From Patescibacteria group bacterium (GTDB lineage Bacteria; Patescibacteriota; Minisyncoccia; Phycocordibacterales; XYD1-FULL-46-19): a stretch of 64,000 nt of DNA. The DNA lies in the NCBI GenBank assembly GCA_048617235.1, contig JBMCHT010000004.1, positions 46,107 to 110,106 of the forward strand. The letters run 5' to 3'. The notes under the pieces are model-generated. The model was not told the DNA's origin. It did not search any database and worked only from the letters and a program-made list of their open reading frames with translations. The position numbers were made by a program, and so were the translations under genes. Within the stretch, counting starts at the first letter, position 1. Each line of letters opens with the position of its first letter. Positions 4,333 to 57,492 of the stretch are shown piece by piece.

Positions 4333-4801
4333 AATCCAGATAACTTACTGACTCTTCTTCTTCAACTCTTCCATCTCTGACCCAAAACAAACTAATAATA
4401 AACAAACAAATTATTAAACCAAAAGATAGTAAACAAAAAGAACACCAGGACTCCAATATTTTCCATTGAATATAAAATAACCAGAAACTAAAACCCAAAG
4501 CCGAGCCGATTAAAAAAGTAATTAAAGCCAAAATCCAATCCACCAAATTTTGTCGCCACCAAATTATTAAAATTATCAACGATAGATAAAACAATAAACC
4601 TCCCAAAGCCAAAGGGAAATCAAAAACCGTATTATAAATACTGGAAGTTACCGCCTGGCAACCATCAAGTCCCAAAACACAAACCAAATCCGAACCCAAA
4701 TAGTGTTTAAAAGTTAAATAAGAAGCATCCGCCAAACCAACAAAAGCCAAAACCAACATAATGATTGACCATTTTTCCGTTTGTTTATTTTCTTTATTCA
4801 T
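4316..4801 (-). CDS. vitamin K epoxide reductase (VKOR) family membrane protein
   Basis: Multi-pass membrane protein. Loop cysteine pair (CVLGLDGC) plus CSFC (CxxC) in a transmembrane segment. Overlaps the DsbA-like gene by 8 nt. Confidence 0.6.
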   Translation of the reverse strand: MNKENKQTEKWSIIMLVLAFVGLADASYLTFKHYLGSDLVCVLGLDGCQAVTSSIYNTVFDFPLALGGLLFYLSLIILIIWWRQNLVDWILALITFLIGSALGFSFWLFYIQWKILESWCSFCLLSFGLIICLFIISLFWVRDGRVEEEESVSYLDYDSAF

Positions 4802-5609
4802 ATTCTATTTCTACAGGAATAGATTCTCCTTCACCGGTTGTTAAATCCACTTCAACTTCCTCCTCAGATAAATCCACATCGCCTTCTTCAGTTGAAGAGG
4901 AAAAATCAGTTACTACCTCTTGAATAGCATTTCGCAAATCTGAAAACTCAGTCAATTTAACTGCCTGACCATTCAAGAAAAAGGTTGGGGTAGATCTCAC
5001 TCCCGCTTGACGACCGGAATCATAATCACTTCTTATTTTTTCACGCAATAAATCAGCATTTAGATCCGTTTTAAATTGCTCCACATCCAATTCCAACTCT
5101 TCAGCCTGAGCAGAAACCAAATTATTAAACTCTTCTATATTCAATCGACTCCACTCCGTTTGATTCTCAAACAACCAATCATGCATCGGCCAAAAAGCTC
5201 CTTGACGACCGGCCGCTTCCGCCGCCAAAGCTGCGGTTCTTGAATGTAAATAACCCAAAGGATAATGACGATAAGTAATATTTAAATCATCTCCAAATTG
5301 ATCAAGTAAATTATCTAATTCAGCTGACCATGCCCGACAAGCCGGACATTGGAAATCACTATATTCAACCAATTGAGCCGGAGCCTCTTCCCCTCCTCCT
5401 TTACTGTTTTCCCATTGAGCTTCGGTTTTAACTTCATCCAAAGAAGAAGTCGAGTCTGTAAATTTCCAAGCCAAGAAAAAGGCTCCGGTTATTATAATAA
5501 AACTAATCCCTACTACTAAAAACCAAGTTAAAAAATTTTTACGCCTGGCCAATTCTTGCCTTTTTAATCTCTTTTCTTTTTTAGATAAATGTTCCGGTTT
5601 ATTGGTCAT
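4794..5609 (-). CDS. DsbA-like thioredoxin-fold thiol:disulfide oxidoreductase (membrane anchored)
   Basis: N-terminal transmembrane helix. CPAC active-site motif (FQCPACRAW). Translationally coupled to VKOR. Confidence 0.65.
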   Translation of the reverse strand: MTNKPEHLSKKEKRLKRQELARRKNFLTWFLVVGISFIIITGAFFLAWKFTDSTSSLDEVKTEAQWENSKGGGEEAPAQLVEYSDFQCPACRAWSAELDNLLDQFGDDLNITYRHYPLGYLHSRTAALAAEAAGRQGAFWPMHDWLFENQTEWSRLNIEEFNNLVSAQAEELELDVEQFKTDLNADLLREKIRSDYDSGRQAGVRSTPTFFLNGQAVKLTEFSDLRNAIQEVVTDFSSSTEEGDVDLSEEEVEVDLTTGEGESIPVEIEYE

Positions 5610-5676
5610 ATTTTGTTTTACAAAATTAAATTTAATATCAACCAGTGTAGCAAATTGTTATCAAAAAACAAATAAA

Positions 5677-6072
5677 TCACCAATTAAGATAAGTGATGGT
5701 AAATTGCAAGACGGTGGCAAAAGATACCCATAAACCATAAGGAATATTAACCAAAGTCACCCACCGAGCATGAGGCCAGATTGCCACCATTAACCAAATT
5801 AAAGTAACTACTACCAAAATAATATCCAAAGAAGCCAAAAGATTATTTTGAAGACCGAATTGAATCGGAGTGTAAATTAAATTAAAAAATAAATTTAAAC
5901 CAAAAGGCACAGCCACCGTTTTTGGTATCTGACCTTTAATCACCTGATAAAAAACCCAACCGAAAGATATAACTATAATTATATACAAAACTGTCCAAAC
6001 TGGAGAAAACAACCAGGCCGGTGGTGCCCAAGCCGGCCTAATAAATTCTGCATATTGAAGAGCTTCATTCAT
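5677..6072 (-). CDS. TspO/MBR (tryptophan-rich sensory protein) family, short form
   Basis: Motif PAWAPPAWLFSPVWTVLYIIIVISFG matches the TspO signature (P.W.PP.W.F.PVWT.LY). 131 aa with 4-5 transmembrane segments. Confidence 0.55.
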   Translation of the reverse strand: MNEALQYAEFIRPAWAPPAWLFSPVWTVLYIIIVISFGWVFYQVIKGQIPKTVAVPFGLNLFFNLIYTPIQFGLQNNLLASLDIILVVVTLIWLMVAIWPHARWVTLVNIPYGLWVSFATVLQFTITYLNW

Positions 6073-10034: not shown

Positions 10035-10064
10035 AGTTTTATTATTTTAAATCCGATAAAATTT

Positions 10065-10085
10065 TGGCGGAGAGGGCGGGATTCG
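10065..10085 (-). repeat. 21-22-bp direct copy of the tRNA-Ser 3' end (attL-like)
   Basis: TGGCGGAGAGGGCGGGATTCG is identical to 12010-12030 (the 3' end of the intact tRNA), in the same orientation. Confidence 0.7.
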
Positions 10086-10191
10086 GCGTCAGCTCACCTC
10101 GCTATAATTCTGCGCTACGCTTGAATTCTAGCGGGTGGCTCCTGCCCGGGCTCAGCCGGTGACATTTTTTCAAAATGTCCGGCTTCCGCCT

Positions 10192-10363
10192 TTCGAATCC
10201 CGCCCTCTCCGCCAATTTACAATTTCAGCATTTTGGGGAGAGATTGCCTCGGCGCTACGCGCCTCGGCAGGCGCGCTTCGCGCGCCAAAGTCCCATTTTG
10301 CGAGGATTTGCCACGCTCCGCGTGGCGAAAAGGAAACGGCTTGGTTTTGGATTTGGAAGTTCG
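10192..10363 (+). repeat. left inverted repeat (~172 bp, GC-rich)
   Basis: About 95% identical to the reverse complement of 11861-12033. The outer tip TTCGAATCCCGCCCTCTCCGCCAA is tRNA 3'-end-like. Contains the perfect palindrome GGCGCGCTTCGCGCGCC at 10270-10286. Confidence 0.85.
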
Positions 10364-10470
10364 TTTGGGCAAAGCCCAAAGTTCCGCAAAGCGGAACCAA
10401 CCAATCTTTTTTCGTTTCGCCACAGGCGAAACACGGAAGCGATAATTTTTAATATTTTGACTGCCTCACT

Positions 10471-12123
<1,653 letters not shown>

Positions 12124-12152
12124 CTTAAATTCTTTTAAAATCCAAGTTAAAT

Positions 12153-13052
12153 TTATTTATCACTTTGTCTTAGAGCTTTTATTCTTTCCTCCACCGGCGG
12201 ATGAGTCATAAACAATTTATGCAAACCGAAACGACTTTTTGAGCCGAAAGGGCTGGCAATAAATAAATGAGCCGTAGCATTGGAGGATTTTTTTATTTCC
12301 CCCGGGTAAGCGGAGATTTTTTCCAAAGCTCGAGCCAAACCTTCCGGATAACGAGTTAGTAAAGCACCGGAAGCATCTGCCAAAAATTCCCGTTTACGAG
12401 AGATAGCCAATTGAATCACCATGGCAATAATGGGAGCCAAAATAGCCAAAGCAATTCCTCCGATGATCATTAGCATTTGTGCCCGACCGTCTCGATTGCC
12501 ACCACCCAAGCCACCCCAAATAGTGGCTCTTAAGAAGAAATCGGATAAAAGAGCGACAAAACCCACCAAAACCACCACTATGGTTTGAAGTAAAATATCT
12601 CGATTACCAATATGAGATAATTCATGAGCCACCACTCCTTCCAGTTCGGTTTTATCCAACCTATCTAATAATCCGGTGGTAAAAGCGACAGCGGCATTAT
12701 CGGCATTACGACCGGTAGCAAAAGCATTGGGAGCCGAATCATTAATAATATAAATCCTAGGTTTAGGTAAACCGGCAGTAATGGCCAAATTCTCTACTAA
12801 TCTATGTAATTCCGGATATCTATCGGGACTGGCCGGCTCGGCTCCGGTTACTTTTAAGGCAATTTTATCAGCTTTCCAATAACTGACAAAATTCATTACT
12901 AAACTGAAAATTATGGCAATGTATAAAATTGTTGGATTACCGAACAGTTGAGCAAACAACCATCCCAAACCGATTACAGTTAGCAAAAAGGCGGTCATTA
13001 ATATCCAAGTTCGACGGATATTACTATCCTGATGATTATACAAAGTGGCCAT
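12153..13052 (-). CDS. htpX: HtpX-family zinc metalloprotease (M48)
   Basis: HELSHIGNRD (HExxH) motif. N-terminal transmembrane helices. Typical size. Confidence 0.8.
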   Translation of the reverse strand: MATLYNHQDSNIRRTWILMTAFLLTVIGLGWLFAQLFGNPTILYIAIIFSLVMNFVSYWKADKIALKVTGAEPASPDRYPELHRLVENLAITAGLPKPRIYIINDSAPNAFATGRNADNAAVAFTTGLLDRLDKTELEGVVAHELSHIGNRDILLQTIVVVLVGFVALLSDFFLRATIWGGLGGGNRDGRAQMLMIIGGIALAILAPIIAMVIQLAISRKREFLADASGALLTRYPEGLARALEKISAYPGEIKKSSNATAHLFIASPFGSKSRFGLHKLFMTHPPVEERIKALRQSDK

Positions 13053-47928: not shown

Positions 47929-48960
47929 CTAATAACTTATTTGATTAACCACTCGCCCCTCTTTATCTTTTAAAATAATGGATTCTCTGGTTCTATCCCA
48001 CATCTGGTGCCCTCGGTTCAAAAATATCCGCCACTCAGGTAAGAAAAAATTAGGATCATCTTTGTGGTTTATAACGCAAGCCGAATAATTAAATCTTTCT
48101 CGAATAAAATCCTGACACTGCTCAGTTAATTCTGAAATACTGCTATCTGTCGGCCGAACACAGCCCCGTAATTTCCTAATATAGTTATAGCAACTATCCT
48201 CCAAAACATTCACCCCCTCATAAGAACTCGGCCGTGGACATTGCCTCATCGGTAAAGCCGGTATGGTTTGAAACCACCGAGTTAAATAACCGCTACATTT
48301 GGTTAATTGAAAGTTAGTATCCACATAAAAACCCCGCGACCCCTCCGGTGACGAACCGGTGGTAATTATAGCTTTAACTCCCGGTTCCAAATAAATATCT
48401 GACGGCTTTTCGCGAATAGCCGGCGGTTGCAAAATCTTTATTCCCTTTCCAATGGTAGCCGTTCTTTTCTCTCCCCAAACCGCCTGATCATCATCACCAC
48501 GAACAAATTCTCTAACCATTTTCTGGTCACCGGCATTTTCCAAAGTCCAACCGGTTATATTTATCGGTTCGGGATTATTACTTCTGGCGGTAATAATAAT
48601 ATATTCATAAGCAGACCTTTGCTCGGTAGCCGCTGTCCCCTTTCTAATTGTTACCATATCTTTCCAAGGAGAAATAGTAGGATCAATTTCTTCCTCTTCT
48701 TCTTCAACCGGAGTCTCTACCTGCGGTTTATCGCTGGTTGGTTTTTTAATTACAGCTGATTTAGGAATCTGCGGAGCGGCCGCTTCAAAATCCGGAATAA
48801 AAAAACTTAAAAAACCACCACTATCAGTAGAAGTAGCCACCTCTCCTTCCTCCCCTTCCCCGGAAGAGATTATAAAGCTACCGACCACCCAAAACAAAAT
48901 CACTAACAAAACCACAAACACCAACATCCCGACCAAGAGTTTCGGATAAAAAGATTTCAT
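47929..48960 (-). CDS. secreted protein, possible lamin-tail-domain (LTD)-like fold
   Basis: N-terminal TM/signal. NNPEPINITGWTLENAGD resembles the LTD core. Cys-rich C-terminal region. Confidence 0.35.
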   Translation of the reverse strand: MKSFYPKLLVGMLVFVVLLVILFWVVGSFIISSGEGEEGEVATSTDSGGFLSFFIPDFEAAAPQIPKSAVIKKPTSDKPQVETPVEEEEEEIDPTISPWKDMVTIRKGTAATEQRSAYEYIIITARSNNPEPINITGWTLENAGDQKMVREFVRGDDDQAVWGEKRTATIGKGIKILQPPAIREKPSDIYLEPGVKAIITTGSSPEGSRGFYVDTNFQLTKCSGYLTRWFQTIPALPMRQCPRPSSYEGVNVLEDSCYNYIRKLRGCVRPTDSSISELTEQCQDFIRERFNYSACVINHKDDPNFFLPEWRIFLNRGHQMWDRTRESIILKDKEGRVVNQISY

Positions 48961-49022
48961 AATATTGTTTTAATTATAAAAGGTTTAGTCATTAAAGCCA
49001 AGTTTTAGGCAAACAAAAAACC
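48852..49022. repeat. direct repeat copy A (~170 bp; promoter plus first ~35 codons of the 47929-48960 gene)
   Basis: About 92% identical to 49856-50012, with a perfect core of ~100 bp. Confidence 0.8.
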
Positions 49023-49120
49023 TTTGATTTACTTTACCTCTAAGGACTGGAATAAATTATAACTTATACATTAAAATAAACTTAGTACGACTCAGGTTTA
49101 TTAAAACAATTTATGTTAAA

Positions 49121-49825
49121 ATGACACTTATGAGTAAAAAAGAAATCGTAATTTATCAAGCAAAATCTGGTGCTATTGAATTTAAGGGAGATATAGGAAA
49201 TGAGACAATTTGGGCTTCGCAGTCTCAAATTGCCGAGGCTTTTGAGGTAGATGTTCGCACAATAAATGAACATATTTTAAATATATATAAAAGTAAAGAA
49301 TTGTCTAAAAAAACAACTATCCGGAATTTCCGGATAGTTCAAAAAGAGGGCAAAAGAGAAGTATCTCGTGAAGTAAAACATTACAATTTAGATATGATTA
49401 TTTCGGTTGGTTATAAGGTTAACTCAAAAAAAGCTACTAAATTTAGACAATGGGCAACCAAAACTCTCAAGGATCACTTAACCAAGGGCTATACGATAAA
49501 CCGCAAAAGAATTACTAAAAATTATCATGAATTTTTAAAATCAGTTGAAGAAATAAAAAAACTTCTTCCCAATGGAGATGCTTTATCTAAAGAAGACACT
49601 TTAGAATTAATTAAATTTTTTGCTAGTACTTGGCTTTCTCTTGATGCTTACGACAAATCAACATTTTCCAAAAAAGGCCTAACCAAAAAACAAATTAAAA
49701 TAACTGCTACCGAATTGGAAAGTGCTATTTATAATTTAAGAAATAATCTCATTTCTCAAAAAGAAGCTACCGACATTTTTGCTCAAGAGCCGAAAGTAAC
49801 CCTAATGATAAAGAAAAAGTTGTAG
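49121..49825 (+). CDS. RhuM-family (virulence protein RhuM-like) protein
   Basis: IVIYQAKSGAIEFKGDIGNETIWASQSQIAEAFEVDVRTINEHI...FRQWATKTLKDHL matches RhuM family proteins. Confidence 0.65.
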   Translation: MTLMSKKEIVIYQAKSGAIEFKGDIGNETIWASQSQIAEAFEVDVRTINEHILNIYKSKELSKKTTIRNFRIVQKEGKREVSREVKHYNLDMIISVGYKVNSKKATKFRQWATKTLKDHLTKGYTINRKRITKNYHEFLKSVEEIKKLLPNGDALSKEDTLELIKFFASTWLSLDAYDKSTFSKKGLTKKQIKITATELESAIYNLRNNLISQKEATDIFAQEPKVTLMIKKKL

Positions 49826-49855
49826 GTTTGGTTTTAAACTTGTTGCGTTGATTTA

Positions 49856-50012
49856 CCCCCTTCTCCGAAAGAAATTATAAAGCTGCCAATCACCGATAAA
49901 ACCACAAACACCAGCATCCCGACCAAGAGTTTCGGATAAAAAGATTTCATAATATTGTTTTAATTATAAAAGGCTTGGTCATTAAAGCCAAGTTTTAGGC
50001 AAACAAAAAACC
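49856..50012. repeat. direct repeat copy B (~157 bp) containing a truncated 5' remnant of a paralogous surface-protein gene
   Basis: Encodes MKSFYPKLLVGMLVFVV... on the minus strand, then diverges and stops after ~38 codons. A terminator hairpin follows at 50005-50030. Confidence 0.8.
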
Positions 50013-50082
50013 GCCCGAAGGCGGTTTTTTGCAACCTAAACTAAGAAAAACTTAGTTTACACAAGGTGGTTTAAGTTATCAA

Positions 50083-52086
50083 CTAAGATGCAGTTAAGTA
50101 TTGAGAAACATAAAGATCATCAATACCGAAGTCAATTGTCTTATCATTTGCCCCAGCTGTTTCACCCCAAGTTATCTCATCTATAGATAAATTCTTATTT
50201 CCAGCAGTGCCACCAGTATTGTCCATATTAGCTTGAACTGTAAAAGTTCTGGAAGTACCGTCAGCTACAAAGAAATCAGATCCCGTATCTCCAGCTTTAC
50301 TAGAAGAAGTAATTTCATCTATTGCTGACGAAGAAGCTGACGAAGAATCACTTATAGCAGTAGCTGCAGTTTTACTTATATAGACATCTCCACCATTAGA
50401 ACTAAGAGTAAACTGGAAAGTTACCTGAGCTAACGCTGGATTGTCAGTAATTGCAGAAGCAACAGCAGACATGTCACTAACGCTTACTGCTAAATCAACA
50501 AAGGTAACCTCTTCACTCGTAACTGTTGATCCACCAACAGTTACATCTTCATAATTAGTATCTTCACCTACAATAGCAACACTATCTGCTGCCAAGCTAG
50601 CTTGAACTCCATCATCTGCTGCCAAATTATCCCCTAACTCACTAACATCAGCTACCAACCTTAAAGTCTTAGTCTCGTCTTTACTGATTTCATATTCTAA
50701 ATCAGTAAAGGTGGTAGTTGCTGCAATAGTATCTGCTGTCCCTATTAAATTACTACCTTCATACAATTCTACACGGGTTAACATATCAGCAATATCGTTA
50801 GCAGAACCAGTAGTAGAAGCAATGTCGAATTTCAACTCATTAATTTCTACATCTTGATTATCGGCCTTAAGTTTAAAGACCAATAATTCCACACCTTCAG
50901 TTTCATAATCACTATCCACTTCAACATTTCTCTTTTGAGGGGTATCAGAACTTAAGGTAGGAGTAATTTGACCTACACTACTAGCTGTAAAGTCAAATTT
51001 CCTACCAGACCATCCACTTTCATGACTTAACCCTACTGTATCAGTACCTCGTACAGCATAATCATCAGTAAGAATTTCAATTTCAGCATCTTCGCGATCT
51101 GTGAATGATAAAGCACTAATTCTAACAGTTAAGTCCTTTTTACTATCTTTTGGAACTACATAATCAACATTACTGAATCGTAATCTATACTCACTACCAG
51201 AAGTTATTTCAGTGAAATCTGAAGATCCAAAATCAGCAATTTCCGCTACGACTGTATCGCCGTCCATAATGGCTATTTTATCAAAATACAACCAAGGACG
51301 AGCATCAAACCGAACATCAATTCTGTTTAAGGTTATATCCGAATCCCGAACATCAACCTCAAATCCCATAACATCTTTGGTTTGACCCTTTTTTAACTCT
51401 ACATTAGAAGGCGAAGAATTTCGAGAAACATCCATAGATCCCTCTCGTGCAACATCTCCTTCGTCGTCGTCTTCAGGATCACTACCATCACAAGGCTCAC
51501 CTGTTACCGGACTAAATCCGGTTGCATCAGTACAACCTTCAGGTAGATCTTCAACCTCAGTATCACAAGGCTCACCTGTTACCGGACTAAAGCCGGTTGT
51601 ATCAGTACAACCTTCAGGCAAACCAGGTTCAGGTTCAGATTCTACCATAGTAGCTTCAACAGCTGCTCTGGTAGAAGGACCCCAGTAACCTCGGTATTCA
51701 CCATAGTCAACACCTAAGTCATCTTGAAGATCACCAACGGCATCCTGAGTTAAACTACCATAATATTCAGATTCATTGCCAGCAGAACCGGGACCACTTG
51801 AAGCTACGGTATATCCGTTAGCATTCAACCACTCTTGTAAAGCTTTAACGGCTGCTCCGGTATCATCGGGAGCCAAGTTAGCTTGAAGAGTAGCTGGTAA
51901 TTCAGATACTCCGGTTGAAGGAGCATCATCAGCAGCAGTCAAATCTTGAATTTGTGCCATTAACTCCTGAATTTGTGCTTGAAGTTCTTCAACAGTTTGT
52001 GCACCTGCAGAAGTAGGAGCTCCAACCACCATAGCAACCGCAATTGCCGATCCGGCAAGAACAGTTAATAATTTTTTCATATTCAT
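50083..52086 (-). CDS. large secreted cell-surface protein with peptidoglycan-binding domain, tandem Cys-motif repeats and Ser/Thr-rich domain
   Basis: Signal peptide. Coiled-coil segment QAQIQELMAQIQDL. PG_binding_1-like segment (AAVKALQEWLNANGY...). Two copies of PEGCTD(T/A)TGFSPVTGEPCD. A long S/T/D-rich beta-rich C-terminal region. Confidence 0.5.
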   Translation of the reverse strand: MNMKKLLTVLAGSAIAVAMVVGAPTSAGAQTVEELQAQIQELMAQIQDLTAADDAPSTGVSELPATLQANLAPDDTGAAVKALQEWLNANGYTVASSGPGSAGNESEYYGSLTQDAVGDLQDDLGVDYGEYRGYWGPSTRAAVEATMVESEPEPGLPEGCTDTTGFSPVTGEPCDTEVEDLPEGCTDATGFSPVTGEPCDGSDPEDDDEGDVAREGSMDVSRNSSPSNVELKKGQTKDVMGFEVDVRDSDITLNRIDVRFDARPWLYFDKIAIMDGDTVVAEIADFGSSDFTEITSGSEYRLRFSNVDYVVPKDSKKDLTVRISALSFTDREDAEIEILTDDYAVRGTDTVGLSHESGWSGRKFDFTASSVGQITPTLSSDTPQKRNVEVDSDYETEGVELLVFKLKADNQDVEINELKFDIASTTGSANDIADMLTRVELYEGSNLIGTADTIAATTTFTDLEYEISKDETKTLRLVADVSELGDNLAADDGVQASLAADSVAIVGEDTNYEDVTVGGSTVTSEEVTFVDLAVSVSDMSAVASAITDNPALAQVTFQFTLSSNGGDVYISKTAATAISDSSSASSSAIDEITSSSKAGDTGSDFFVADGTSRTFTVQANMDNTGGTAGNKNLSIDEITWGETAGANDKTIDFGIDDLYVSQYLTAS
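51487..51620. repeat. 75-bp tandem repeat x2 inside the surface-protein gene
   Basis: ATCACAAGGCTCACCTGTTACCGGACTAAA(T/G)CCGGTTG(C/T)ATCAGTACAACCTTCAGG is repeated with period 75. Confidence 0.8.
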
Positions 52087-56439: not shown

Positions 56440-57492
56440 ATGCCTAAGAAAAAAAATACAGAACCCAAAAAAAGCAATATTCCCAGTCCGGATAAAGAAA
56501 AAAATGCGGCTGAGGTTGAAAGCACCATCCAGGCCATTCAGAGTCGTTTTGGCGAAGGTGCGATTATGAAGCTGGGTCAATCCCCCAAGGTGGATGTAGG
56601 AGCTATCCCCACCGGATCATTAGGTTTGGATTTTGCTTTGGGAATCGGTGGTATCCCCCGAGGCCGAGTAATAGAAATATATGGACCGGAATCCTCCGGT
56701 AAAACCACTCTGGCTTTACACATGGTGGCTGAAGCCCAAAAAAAAGGCGGGGTTTGCGCTTTTGTGGATGCCGAACATGCCTTGGATCCCCAATATTCTC
56801 AAAAAATAGGAGTTAAGATTGATGATCTTTTAATTTCCCAACCGGATTACGGAGAACAAGCTCTGGAGATTGCCGAGAGTTTAATTCGCTCCGGTGGAAT
56901 AGATATTGTAGTTATAGACTCAGTGGCCGCCTTAACCCCCAAAGATGAAATAGAGGGTGATGTGGGAGCTCATCATGTGGGTAAACAAGCCCGTTTAATG
57001 TCTCAGGCCTTACGGAAAATGACCGCTCTGGTAGCCAGAAGTAAAACCACGGTCATTTTTATTAACCAAATCAGGATGCAGATTGGAATGACTTTCGGTA
57101 ATCCGGAAACCACTCCCGGCGGTAAAGCCCTTAAATTTTATTCTTCTGTCAGGTTGGATGTTCGGCGTATCGCTCAAATTAAAAAAGGAGATGAAGTGGT
57201 TGGCGGTCGGGTTCGAGTTAAAGTGGTTAAAAACAAAGTAGCCGCTCCTTTTAGATTGGCCGAATTTGATATCCTCTACAATGAAGGCATTACCCCTGAA
57301 GGTGAAATGTTGGCTTTGGGCGAAAAACTGGATTTAATTAAAAAAAGCGGTGCCAGTTATACCTATACCCCACCGGAAGGTGAAGAGGTAAAATTAGGTC
57401 GGGGTTACGATATGGCTCGAACTTTCTTAAAAGAAAATCCGAAAATTAGCAAGGAATTAATGAAAAATATTAAAAACTCTTGGGATAAATAA
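56440..57492 (+). CDS. recA: recombinase RecA
   Basis: GPESSGKTT Walker A motif. Conserved L2 loop region. 350 aa. Confidence 0.95.

Follow-up and report, generated by a model that had tools for sequence, protein, structure and literature searches.

Gene organization of the locus

The locus lies in a window of 64,000 nucleotides from a Patescibacteria group bacterium (the window being the whole stretch of DNA analysed), in a region that codes for several secreted or anchored proteins. An intact gene on the minus strand (47929-48960) encodes a 343-aa protein with an N-terminal membrane anchor, and its upstream neighbour on the same strand (50083-52086) encodes, according to the list of open reading frames and Pfam, a 667-aa secreted protein with a PG_binding_1 domain. 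The 343-aa protein gave a weak match, below cut-off, to the Lamin-tail domain (LTD) of Pfam (E = 9e-4); GCA_964402165.1 includes a protein of exactly this sequence, and a search of 5.8 billion proteins returned no paralogues or close homologues outside its own 90% cluster. Between these two genes lies a single plus-strand gene of the RhuM family, bracketed by direct repeats. The initial annotation had associated such a gene with genomic islands or prophage-like islands, an expectation that the surroundings do not bear out: the neighbours of the locus are core genes (FtsK, RecA, L10 and L7/L12), with no island or prophage context at the locus. No integrase or recombinase is encoded in the insert or within ±6 kb, the sole recombinase in the window being a large serine recombinase 38 kb off, and a Pfam scan of 38 window ORFs, which take in all non-overlapping ORFs of 218 aa or more, revealed no integron integrase.

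Direct repeats derived from the target gene

A repeat search of the window returned two pairs of direct repeats, one of 125 nt at 95% identity (48898-49022 and 49888-50012) and one of 43 nt at 81% identity (48852-48894 and 49857-49899), which pairwise alignment joined into copy A (48852-49022, 171 nt) and copy B (49857-50012, 156 nt), both read on the minus strand. The two copies differ by 10 mismatches and one 15-nt gap (~94% identity, gap aside), in agreement with the direct repeats initially annotated around the RhuM-like gene. Copy A comprises codons 1-36 of the 343-aa gene and 62 nt upstream, including a promoter identified by motif reading (-35 at 49001-48996, -10 at 48978-48973); copy B comprises a promoter identified in the same way (-35 at 49991-49986, -10 at 49968-49963), an ATG at 49950 and the start of a 38-codon stump ORF (49834-49950, minus strand), which runs antisense into the 3' end of the RhuM gene. 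The minus-strand promoter-like site TTGGCT-17-TATAAT and the ATG followed by MKSFYPKLLVGMLVFVV are common to both copies. The earlier description of each repeat as a promoter plus the start of a surface-protein gene, heading an intact gene at copy A and a remnant at copy B, is therefore upheld. A 36-nt stretch that includes the start codon is present in exactly two places in the window and in none of 100 shuffled sequences, and no third copy of this 5' module, promoter plus gene start, is present in the 64 kb.

The 667-aa gene ends in a bidirectional terminator hairpin (A6-CCGCC-cgaa-GGCGG-T6, 50005-50030; folding energy -26.8 kcal/mol, z = -6.7), and a search of Rfam gave sub-threshold matches only, driven by this hairpin. 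Copy B is continuous with this upstream terminator and ends 2 nt into its GC stem, and copy A is continuous with the gene body and retains only AAAAAACC from the hairpin; the promoter is kept in both, and microhomology at the junctions does not exceed 1-2 nt. Located 132 nt past the stop of the 667-aa gene and directly after its terminator, copy B occupies, as these positions support, the exact place expected of the ancestral promoter and start codon. Together with the run of copy A into the intact gene, this position favours the duplicated target that the initial annotation had offered as one possibility. Differences between the copies are concentrated at the coding end, where 41 aligned nt hold 7 mismatches and the indel, versus 3 mismatches in 115 nt elsewhere; this pattern is not what a fresh duplication with uniform drift would predict and fits gene conversion, continued use of the copy B promoter or a diverged donor copy.

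The cassette carries a decayed RhuM–Doc gene

The interval between the ends of repeat homology (49023-49856, plus strand) is an inserted cassette of 834 nt, or ~1081 nt before an internal deletion, consisting of ~107 nt of 5' flank, a RhuM–Doc pseudogene and 5 nt past the natural stop. The RhuM gene is the only gene in the ORF list between copies A and B, as first annotated, and its family assignment was confirmed with the PF13310 profile suggested for that purpose (E = 2.7e-27, 96.1 bits against a cut-off of 33.7), the match covering residues 66-145 and model positions 2-87 of 252. The gene had also been taken as intact and as running from 49121 to 49825, and on these two points the annotation needs revision. 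Read from 49121, the ORF has no record in an exact-protein look-up; its start codon is likely the ATG at 49130, which yields the 231-aa product annotated in GenBank. This remaining ORF (49130-49825, plus strand) consists of a RhuM N-terminal part, which shares 79% identity with residues 1-220 of the full-length relative P0002, followed by an 11-residue out-of-frame tail.

Alignment of the DNA with the full-length genes of three related loci (L003, L169 and L170) placed a deletion junction at 49787/49788, where 247 nt have been lost, and comparison at both the DNA and the protein level showed that this deletion took out the Fic/Doc core, HPFxDGNKR motif included, and caused a frameshift. The last 19 residues and the stop of the full-length protein can still be recognized in another frame, as ESNPNDKEKVVGLVLNLLR and a stop codon at 49792-49851 (plus strand; the C-terminus of P0002 reads AESNPSDKEKVVGLILNLLR). 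The natural stop at 49849-49851 lies 5 nt short of copy B, so the insert fills the entire interval 49023-49856, and truncation of the RhuM gene through the arrival of copy B is ruled out, since that stop is still in place. The cassette gene is thus a pseudogene of a two-domain RhuM plus Fic/Doc protein of ~325 aa, the PADLOC candidate PDC-S23, and descends from a full-length RhuM/Fic/DOC member, both ends of the gene being recognizable. On the PDC-S23 model (327 positions), the window protein covers positions 1-221 only and P0002 covers 1-323. The full-length two-domain architecture (~312-331 aa) is not found in the window protein, which has no PF02661 match, and the region encoding the Fic/Doc catalytic motif HxFx(D/N)(A/G)N(G/K)R is absent from the gene. 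With the Doc catalytic core deleted, the toxin is dead, and the gene can now yield no more than the RhuM part. The cassette strand holds no second ORF between the repeats that could serve as an antitoxin of the phd-doc type.

At the 5' border of the cassette, 1 nt after copy A, the 9-nt sequence TTGATTTAC (49024-49032, plus strand) repeats the cassette 3' end, where a second copy (49848-49856) lies across the natural stop codon. This border redundancy is confined to the window, the other loci being without it, and in a cross-locus null comparison matches of 7-8 nt were not rare. An extended -10-like sequence, TGTTAAAAT (49114-49122, plus strand), was identified 7 nt before the ATG at 49130 by aligning 19 upstream regions, with TGCTAAAAT as its counterpart in L003 and TGTTAAAAT in L016. 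This -10-like TGnTAAAAT was the only feature in common among the flanks of 19 CPR cassettes, which share no non-coding end or recombination site; the close relatives L169 and L170 have neither flanking repeats nor conserved flanks. The proposed check of base composition was equivocal: the GC content of the RhuM gene, 0.306, ranks fifth from the bottom among 48 ORFs (z = -1.6) and its GC3 is 0.238, values that are low yet within the host range, and composition was therefore dropped as a decisive sign of foreign origin.

Comparison with related genomes

A search of genome contigs with the 343-aa protein retrieved one distant relative only. Synteny was compared in a distant relative (L088), where the gene order FtsK/297 aa/635 aa/341 aa/417 aa corresponds to FtsK/270/667/343/425 in the window. 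Each of these proteins is homologous to its syntenic counterpart, at only 26-29% protein identity (29% between the 635-aa and 667-aa proteins). In this relative the 635-aa and 341-aa genes are separated by 100 nt with no RhuM gene, and the intergenic layout runs from terminator to promoter (-10) to ATG, as at copy B with the hairpin at 50005-50030. The initial annotation had proposed an acquired cassette, and had held that an arrangement conserved across distant relatives would be ancestral instead; because the distant relative keeps the flanking gene order without RhuM, comparison of the sequences supports acquisition. Among the closest sequences, RhuM adjoins the 343-aa protein as well as both of its cluster mates, and these close relatives offer no true empty site.

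The arrangement itself is found in independent assemblies. Copy A and its junction with RhuM are reproduced in two JGI contigs (L005 and L006), the first of which is 96-97% identical to the window over the target gene as well as at either edge of RhuM. In addition, the 343-aa protein and the 231-aa RhuM product recur in identical form in a second NCBI MAG, beside a 665-aa neighbour and under consecutive accessions. A further contig (L007) stops inside copy B, just before the first mismatch between the two copies.

Recurrence of flanking repeats in the RhuM–Fic family

The cassette protein has 7,777 relatives, and among the best 120 of these most are 320-330 aa in length and contain both PF13310 and PF02661. 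The HPFxDGNKR motif is invariant in 28 relatives, full-length members score near the TIGR01550 cut-off (37.8 versus 38.65 bits), and the RhuM–Fic relatives are likewise single genes. Direct repeats scoring at least 35 bits lie on either side of the RhuM–Fic gene in 11 of the 72 loci, or 10 of 71 if the window is set aside, where 0.30 would be expected on the basis of other positions in these loci; an inverted-repeat control gave one locus, and ~85% of RhuM–Fic loci are without flanking repeats. In each genome the repeats match the local target, the duplications range in length from 20 to 241 nt among the loci, and the junctions lie at or beside hairpins. In the closest full-length relative (L003), the 3' end of a tRNA-Thr is duplicated and repeated in tandem arrays, and elsewhere the duplicated piece is the start of a Wzy_C/TPR membrane protein gene (L014) or the 5' end of hsdR (L062 and L072). 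A further locus (L046) holds RhuM–Fic and an AAA_14/DUF4143 ATPase between three repeats of the hsdR 5' end, and the three hsdR cases may stem from a single event. In the clear cases (L003, L014, L062 and L072), a host function is left whole by the duplicated piece.

The tRNA-Thr locus looks like classical att-site integration at a tRNA, and its att-like tandem arrays suggest a recombinase route in at least some genomes. A phage vehicle was considered and rejected, since viral contigs carry separate RhuM-N or Doc domains only and no full-length fusion. No circular contigs, as judged by terminal overlaps, were found among the examined loci of up to 4.5 kb, RhuM-bearing contigs included.

A palindrome within the RhuM coding sequence

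A perfect palindrome with 12-bp arms, AACTATCCGGAATTTCCGGATAGTT (49315-49339, plus strand), lies inside the RhuM coding sequence at the codons T-I-R-N-F-R-I-V. A palindrome with covarying arms occupies the same codons across the RhuM family, in every RhuM-domain gene examined, and is kept through compensatory changes that extend even to the amino acids encoded. The window contains no extra operator-like copies of the palindrome, and its half-site is mildly over-represented there (15 versus 3.8). In E. coli dinD, an inverted repeat with 15-nt arms is found at a comparable position of the coding sequence (nt 174-205). The portions of the RhuM-family literature available to us mention neither flanking repeats nor an internal palindrome.

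These observations bear on a broader reading, which at present seems improbable to us, whereby RhuM–Doc genes are widespread recombinase-less one-gene mobile cassettes that create long and variable target duplications, with the palindrome as a cis-acting site. Such cassettes would pass through a circular or concatemeric intermediate, their duplications of 20-240 bp would rescue the host gene or tRNA, and the palindrome would function in cassette mobility or in the protein's own control. If confirmed to be functional, the palindrome would be a nucleic-acid element hidden in a family long annotated only as 'virulence protein'.

Discussion

Our data suggest a model, which we regard as probable, whereby a RhuM–Doc gene was inserted horizontally into a surface-protein gene with a target duplication of ~160 bp and subsequently decayed. 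A single-gene cassette encoding a RhuM/Bro-N-like DNA-binding part and a Doc-type Fic domain would have been acquired horizontally and would have landed inside codon ~36 of the membrane-anchored surface-protein gene, duplicating ~160 bp of its target, a stretch that begins 2 nt into the hairpin of the upstream terminator and extends to codon 36. Through this duplication the target gene would have retained a complete promoter and 5' end (copy A), and copy B would be the original promoter and 5' end, stranded as a stump beyond the insert. The 247-nt deletion of the Doc core would have followed later, as would, in a sister strain, the replacement of a ~330-nt patch of the RhuM part by a divergent allele. 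The insert would now be removable by RecA-dependent recombination between the repeats, which would restore a single intact gene. Of these elements, the sequences themselves show that the cassette was acquired, how the duplication is arranged and that the gene has decayed, and they show as well that such a footprint recurs in other genomes.

As to the molecular route, we infer, tentatively, one illegitimate or template-switching event in which a circular or concatemeric donor was copied slightly more than one turn before synthesis re-entered the host template ~160 nt upstream. Copying past one full turn would account for the presence of the 9-nt TTGATTTAC at both inner borders. A rather unlikely alternative is a Campbell-type event, whereby a small circle that bore RhuM–Doc together with an attP-like ~160-nt copy of the target integrated by a single crossover with the chromosome, through RecA or a recombinase acting in trans, and copies A and B represent attL and attR. 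Insertion-duplication by a single crossover would give exactly this geometry, the 6% divergence of the copies with its concentration at one end is expected of a diverged donor copy, and the 9-nt border redundancy fits a circular form; moreover, the tRNA-Thr 3'-end array of L003 resembles sequential att-site integration, and both RecA and a large serine recombinase are encoded in the window. However, the block of identity on such a circle must match a lineage-specific gene without close homologues in 5.8 billion proteins, so that the element could have picked it up only within the same lineage and the origin of the duplication is pushed back one step. The repeats of related cassettes, in addition, are unrelated and in every case match the local target, these cassettes have no common non-coding recombination site, no recombinase lies within 6 kb, and neither circular contigs among the loci of up to 4.5 kb examined nor full-length RhuM–Fic genes in viral contigs were found; to our knowledge, serine integrases leave no long repeats.

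Two other explanations were considered. In one, taken up from the initial annotation, recombination acted on paralogous 5' ends: tandem paralogues shared the same 5' module, and RhuM replaced the body of the second, of which copy B is the remnant. The complete promoter, start codon and 31 homologous codons of copy B would suit this, as would the several secreted or anchored proteins encoded in the region, but with two copies of the module in 64 kb, no paralogues in protein searches and one gene at this position in the distant relative, the proposal found no footing and is very unlikely; it would also need the left junction of the cassette to coincide exactly with the boundary of a tandem duplication inside the terminator stem. 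It is equally hard to credit that the arrangement is ancestral and was lost in relatives such as L088, or that it is an assembly artefact of a 125-nt near-identical repeat, even though the synteny argument relies on one distant relative and short-read assemblies do break at the repeat, as in the contig that ends in copy B. Loss would have had to remove precisely the cassette and one repeat and to restore the terminator-promoter-ATG layout; recombination between the repeats would achieve this, yet it implies an earlier insertion. As for an artefact, the junctions are reproduced in independent assemblies, and because the copies differ at 10 positions and by one indel, neither collapse nor duplication of one sequence during assembly explains them.

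Taken alone, the locus preserves a dead toxin gene in an uncultured bacterium. Under the insertion model it is also a clean, datable example of foreign-gene uptake by a streamlined Patescibacteria genome, at a site within an envelope gene that was nonetheless retained. An insert with a duplicated target surrounds about one in seven RhuM–Fic genes in unrelated phyla, at tRNA ends, hsdR starts and envelope-gene starts, and these sequence footprints point to a common, so far undescribed mode by which one-gene defence or toxin cassettes may spread. The footprint of insert plus duplicated target also provides a simple sequence signature for spotting empty and filled sites.

Comparison with known systems

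The Doc toxin of the phage P1 phd-doc module (TIGR01550) is a Fic-fold kinase of EF-Tu. Full-length RhuM–Fic relatives bear the same Doc-type HPFxDGNKR motif, but they have a RhuM part fused in front and no separate Phd gene, and the window copy lacks the motif altogether; with its Doc domain deleted and its frame broken, the window protein is unable to act as a Doc-type toxin. Its best PADLOC models are those of PDC-S23, a one-gene candidate phage-defence system defined by genomic association only (PADLOC-DB), and many annotations label the RhuM/Fic/DOC combination (PF13310 plus PF02661) as 'death-on-curing family protein'. Passages of an earlier study describe the RhuM family as fused to DOC, embedded in R-M loci and a proposed toxin (PMC3710099). 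The R-M context is also seen at the hsdR-linked loci L046, L062 and L072, whereas the window locus is a core-genome envelope-gene cluster rather than an R-M operon or island. E. coli DinD, which matches Pfam Bro-N instead of PF13310 and has no Doc domain, resembles the RhuM proteins in the inverted repeat inside its coding sequence and in its grouping, CDD placing dinD with RhuM-domain proteins according to the relevant passage of one report (PMC9881135).

With respect to mobile elements, an insertion sequence or transposon was rejected: there is no transposase, the best terminal inverted repeats are 29 nt at 72% identity, and the duplication of 156-171 nt contrasts with the short, fixed target duplication (2-15 bp) taken as the mark of a transposon. 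Integron cassettes are similar as compact one-gene units of ~1 kb that occur in many contexts, and arrays with defence-type cassettes have a parallel in L046. They differ in that the RhuM cassette has no attC (5 nt separate the stop from the repeat) and no IntI or attI, brings its own promoter-like -10 and is flanked by repeats derived from the target rather than the element. A further comparison is with att-flanked genomic islets, which include tRNA-targeted islands, integrase-less CIMEs and satellites, and SXT-type elements that rebuild the prfC 5' end. As in these, the insert sits between direct repeats derived from the target, and the target remains functional through the duplicated piece; an adjacent recombinase and a shared element-borne site, expected of an element of the attL/attR type, were not found. 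The 834-nt insert has no integrase inside or nearby, its repeats are 156-171 nt of the 5' end of a lineage-specific gene, and the repeats of related cassettes are unrelated, with no common recombination site.

Laboratory-defined routes to comparable structures are single-crossover insertion-duplication and homology-facilitated or double illegitimate recombination during transformation, as in Acinetobacter and pneumococcus. The window junctions differ from these in that microhomology there is at most 1-2 nt, and the routes themselves were defined in the laboratory; the order of truncated copy, insert and intact copy, the variable lengths and the junctions near hairpins are nevertheless in keeping with such routes. 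Published work deals with the formation of merodiploids in natural transformation (PMC3784515) and with natural competence in Saccharibacteria (PMC10633639).

RESULTS

Direct repeats around the RhuM gene

The two direct repeats on either side of the RhuM cassette are real: copy A (48852-49022, 171 nt) and copy B (49857-50012, 156 nt) align with 10 mismatched positions and one 15-nt gap, and the window contains exactly two occurrences of a 36-nt stretch over the start codon, which shuffled sequences never reproduced. Both copies carry a promoter-like site (TTGGCT-17-TATAAT) and identical first 17 codons; the intact 343-aa ORF continues copy A, and copy B stops after 38 codons. Upstream host DNA is continuous with copy B and the target-gene body with copy A, the geometry of a duplicated target, and novel joints lie at both inner borders, between 49022 and 49023 and between 49856 and 49857. 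One end of the duplicated segment falls 2 nt within the GC stem of a bidirectional terminator hairpin (50005-50030, -26.8 kcal/mol, z = -6.7). This geometry fits equally an insertion with a target duplication of ~160 bp and a single crossover with a circle carrying the target. Recombination between paralogous 5' ends, which the initial annotation had offered beside a duplicated target, was rejected as the origin of the repeats, because there is no third copy of the module, no paralogue was found and a distant relative (L088) has a single gene at this place. In addition, the 9-mer TTGATTTAC lies just inside both cassette borders (49024-49032 and 49848-49856); the latter copy spans the natural stop, and thus the 3' end of the cassette is repeated at its 5' border. 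Such redundancy is expected if a circular or concatemeric donor was copied or joined over a little more than a single unit; it was not found in the other loci compared, and we therefore treat it as a hint only.

The window was placed on contig CAYOAU010000003.1 of GCA_964402165.1, a metagenome-assembled Patescibacteria (CPR) genome. The surroundings of the insertion are core genome: FtsK and RecA (RecA gene, 56440-57492) lie to one side, ribosomal proteins L10 and L7/L12 to the other, and the genes in between encode several secreted or membrane-anchored products, namely a 667-aa PG_binding_1 protein, the 343-aa target protein, a 104-aa holin-like membrane protein and a 425-aa PKD protein. Within the 667-aa gene, two 57-nt copies with 96% identity and a spacing of 75 nt (51487-51618) code for a repeated PEGCTD(A/T)TGFSPVTGEPCD module, an ordinary internal protein repeat. 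Protein searches with the 343-aa protein found no close homologues beyond its own 90% cluster. The Logan contig of the distant relative retains the order FtsK(-)/297/635/341/417, each protein homologous to its window counterpart at 26-29% identity, and its 635-aa and 341-aa genes are only 100 nt apart. That spacer holds, in order, a terminator hairpin, a -10 box and an ATG, the same layout as at copy B (667-aa gene stop at 50083, hairpin, promoter, ATG at 49950), which argues that copy B marks the ancestral site of the gene start. From this comparison, the inserted material would be the cassette plus sequence worth one repeat copy, either A or B. The proposal that the cassette was acquired holds up, since the arrangement is not conserved in the distant relative with its 100-nt spacer. 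Composition adds little: the GC (0.306) and GC3 (0.238) of the RhuM gene are low, yet within the range of the window's 48 ORFs.

No recombinase was found within 6 kb of the insert, and only one, a large serine recombinase (10471-12123), occurs anywhere in the window. This 550-aa gene is flanked by a 172-nt inverted repeat (10192-10363 and 11861-12032, 96%), one arm of which contains the 3' end of tRNA-Ser(GGA) (12010-12099), and a perfect 22-nt direct copy of the tRNA end lies at 10064-10085; the whole region (10064-12123) looks like a minimal recombinase-only element at a tRNA gene, integrative or invertible. An ARAGORN 'tmRNA' call on the minus strand (12010-12517) overlaps the tRNA and an M48 peptidase gene, has an implausible tag peptide and is probably spurious, the tRNA having seeded it.

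The RhuM gene and its later history

The gene between the repeats belongs to the RhuM family, as annotated, but it is not intact. The PF13310 match of the window ORF far exceeds the threshold but is confined to the first third of the model, whereas nearly all of the best 120 relatives are proteins of 320-330 aa with PF13310 and PF02661 (Fic/DOC), named 'virulence protein RhuM/Fic/DOC family protein' or 'death-on-curing protein'. The closest among the matches listed (P0002, 322 aa, Paceibacterota) shares 79% identity across residues 1-220, beyond which the similarity ends. DNA alignment with three full-length genes places a single 247-nt gap between 49787 and 49788; the motif HPFxDGNKR, invariant in 28 relatives and known as the Doc-type variant of the Fic motif, falls within this gap and is absent from the window gene, and 49792-49851 encodes, in another frame, the natural C-terminus of the family, ESNPNDKEKVVGLVLNLLR followed by a stop. 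Likewise, the window protein covers only positions 1-221 of the 327 of PADLOC PDC-S23, a candidate single-gene defence system for the full-length family. The gap, the lost motif and the out-of-frame C-terminus together mark the gene as a pseudogene derived from a RhuM–Doc fusion, or at best as a remnant of its RhuM part. With just 5 nt separating the natural stop (49849-49851) from copy B, the insert amounts to one complete gene that has ~107 nt of flank on its 5' side and hardly any on its 3' side. Doc-less forms make up about 5% of the best 120 relatives (for example P0030, ending ...FAQER), which indicates that loss of the toxin half recurs.

The junction of copy A with the cassette is reproduced in two JGI contigs from other samples (L005 and L006), and the truncated 231-aa product is present in another NCBI MAG; the insertion is thus older than the split of these strains. 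Identity between L005, from a sister strain, and the window is 96-97% in the 343-aa gene, in copy A and at either edge of the RhuM gene, and falls to 40-75% over ~330 nt (49190-49520), a stretch also compared at protein level. This patch was exchanged for a divergent allele within the inserted gene, a TIRNFRIV-type palindrome being swapped for the NVQNMHI type in L005. The RhuM gene thus went on recombining after insertion, and the Doc domain was lost in at least the window lineage.

A palindrome inside RhuM coding sequences

A terminator scan flagged a perfect palindrome within the window RhuM coding sequence (49315-49339). A palindrome with 9-13-bp arms and a 3-5-nt A/T centre is present at the same codons in nearly all of ~80 distinct RhuM-domain genes from genomes of 27-66% GC, phage contigs included (loci L003, L008-L084, L089-L123, L169 and L170). 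Its sequence varies by subfamily, and the dyad is retained through changes in both arms that alter amino acids in codon-complementary pairs (TIRKFRIV, TVAKNATV, TCAKIAQV, TTEESSVV, TCKESLQV, VVKDSLTT, NVQNMHI); rare A/T-rich codons are kept there in GC-rich genomes (60-66% GC). In a protein-guided codon alignment, 78% of cells were Watson-Crick paired versus 14-29% in shifted registers, and pair counting gave 86% versus 59.7% in shuffles. Double changes occurred at 11/11 pairs, with 237 double-change cells versus 67 in shuffles, a value attained by none of 500. These patterns suggest that selection at the palindrome acts on nucleic acid, the element being either a candidate RNA hairpin or a candidate dyad-symmetric DNA site. 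No Rfam match to it was found. A similarly placed inverted repeat, with 15-nt arms, occurs in E. coli dinD (L171, 3934-3965), a Bro-N family gene. With one mismatch allowed, the half-site CTATCCGGAA has 15 sites in the window (e.g. 7120, 24007, 49317 and 60486) versus 3.8 expected and a maximum of 11 in 100 shuffles; this excess may reflect only codon or dinucleotide usage.

Recurrence at other RhuM–Fic loci

In a set of 80 metagenomic RhuM–Fic loci, to which contigs from three close relatives were added, direct repeats scoring 35 bits or more bracketed the gene in 11/72 loci (10/71 without the window), against 0.30 expected from all other positions in the same loci; an inverted-repeat control gave one case, a palindromic terminator. 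Flanking repeats are absent from ~85% of loci, L169 and L170 included. The bracketing repeats are local host sequence in every case and share no element site. They comprise a 56-62-nt piece of the tRNA-Thr 3' end and its terminator in the closest relative (L003), the beginning of a downstream gene for a Wzy_C/TPR membrane protein, with its ATG and first 14 codons (L014), a terminator hairpin (L015), 42 nt overlapping the RhuM stop (L060) and 58-241 nt of the hsdR 5' end in three genomes of 63-66% GC (L062, L072 and L046). The repeats measure 20 to 241 nt, and in tight cases the right junction falls -9 to +56 nt from the stop. Wherever this can be judged, the host gene or tRNA stays intact after the duplication. 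The upstream regions share only an extended -10 (TGnTAAAAT), and viral contigs contain only separate RhuM-N or Doc domains.

Around RhuM–Fic alone, hsdR 5' ends are duplicated in L062 and L072; in L046 (2670-5707), three copies (67-226 nt, 82-93%) enclose a pair of consecutive genes, one for RhuM–Fic and one for an AAA_14/DUF4143 ATPase, resembling a small cassette array at the hsdR start. Upstream of the L003 cassette are two further tandem units of 197 nt: tRNA-Thr(TGT) is followed (4406-6064) by these and a partial third, each of which opens with a divergent tRNA 3'-end copy plus a hairpin and has a 135-nt GC-rich body, and then by the RhuM–Fic cassette and a fourth copy. Further units bracketed by repeats adjoin RhuM–Fic genes: a second Fic gene and a frameshifted RhuM–Fic lie between 151-nt repeats (L078, 1235-3740), a Gp49/HigB-like toxin gene lies between 51-nt repeats (L066, 3925-4641), and several repeat families with tRNA-like fragments surround the cassette of L016 (797-4157).

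DISCUSSION

A foreign one-gene cassette occupies the 5' end of a host gene and is bracketed by a duplication of ~160 bp of target. The interrupted gene remains intact, the cassette has lost its toxin half by deletion and the pattern recurs elsewhere. The observation in the initial annotation was correct and its interpretation partly so. As to how the joints were made, we infer a single illegitimate or template-switching event in which the donor was circular or concatemeric. We favour this route because the repeats differ greatly in length from locus to locus and in each case match the local target, neither a recombinase nor a shared site accompanies the gene, and junctions lie at or beside hairpins (the window terminator, L015, L003 and L014). 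Its main rival, Campbell-type integration of a circle bearing an identity block, fits the tRNA array of L003 and the uneven divergence of copies A and B, but would need an element that already carried 160 nt of a lineage-specific gene. RecA could remove the insert by recombining the repeats, which would leave one intact gene, and the copy B promoter would now be directed antisense into the RhuM gene.

The locus is moderately interesting alone, and the recurrent footprint and the intragenic palindrome raise its interest. In the accessible portions of the literature naming the RhuM family, we found nothing on target-derived flanking repeats, single-gene mobility or the palindrome; as far as checked in those portions, the insertion footprint and its recurrence are undescribed. 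Published work describes RhuM-like domains that are fused to DOC, embedded in R-M operons and proposed as toxins (PMC3710099), and an enrichment of RhuM genes beside inversion loci of type I R-M systems (PMC9881135). The gene studied here is a decayed representative of this known toxin/defence family, inserted with a long target duplication.
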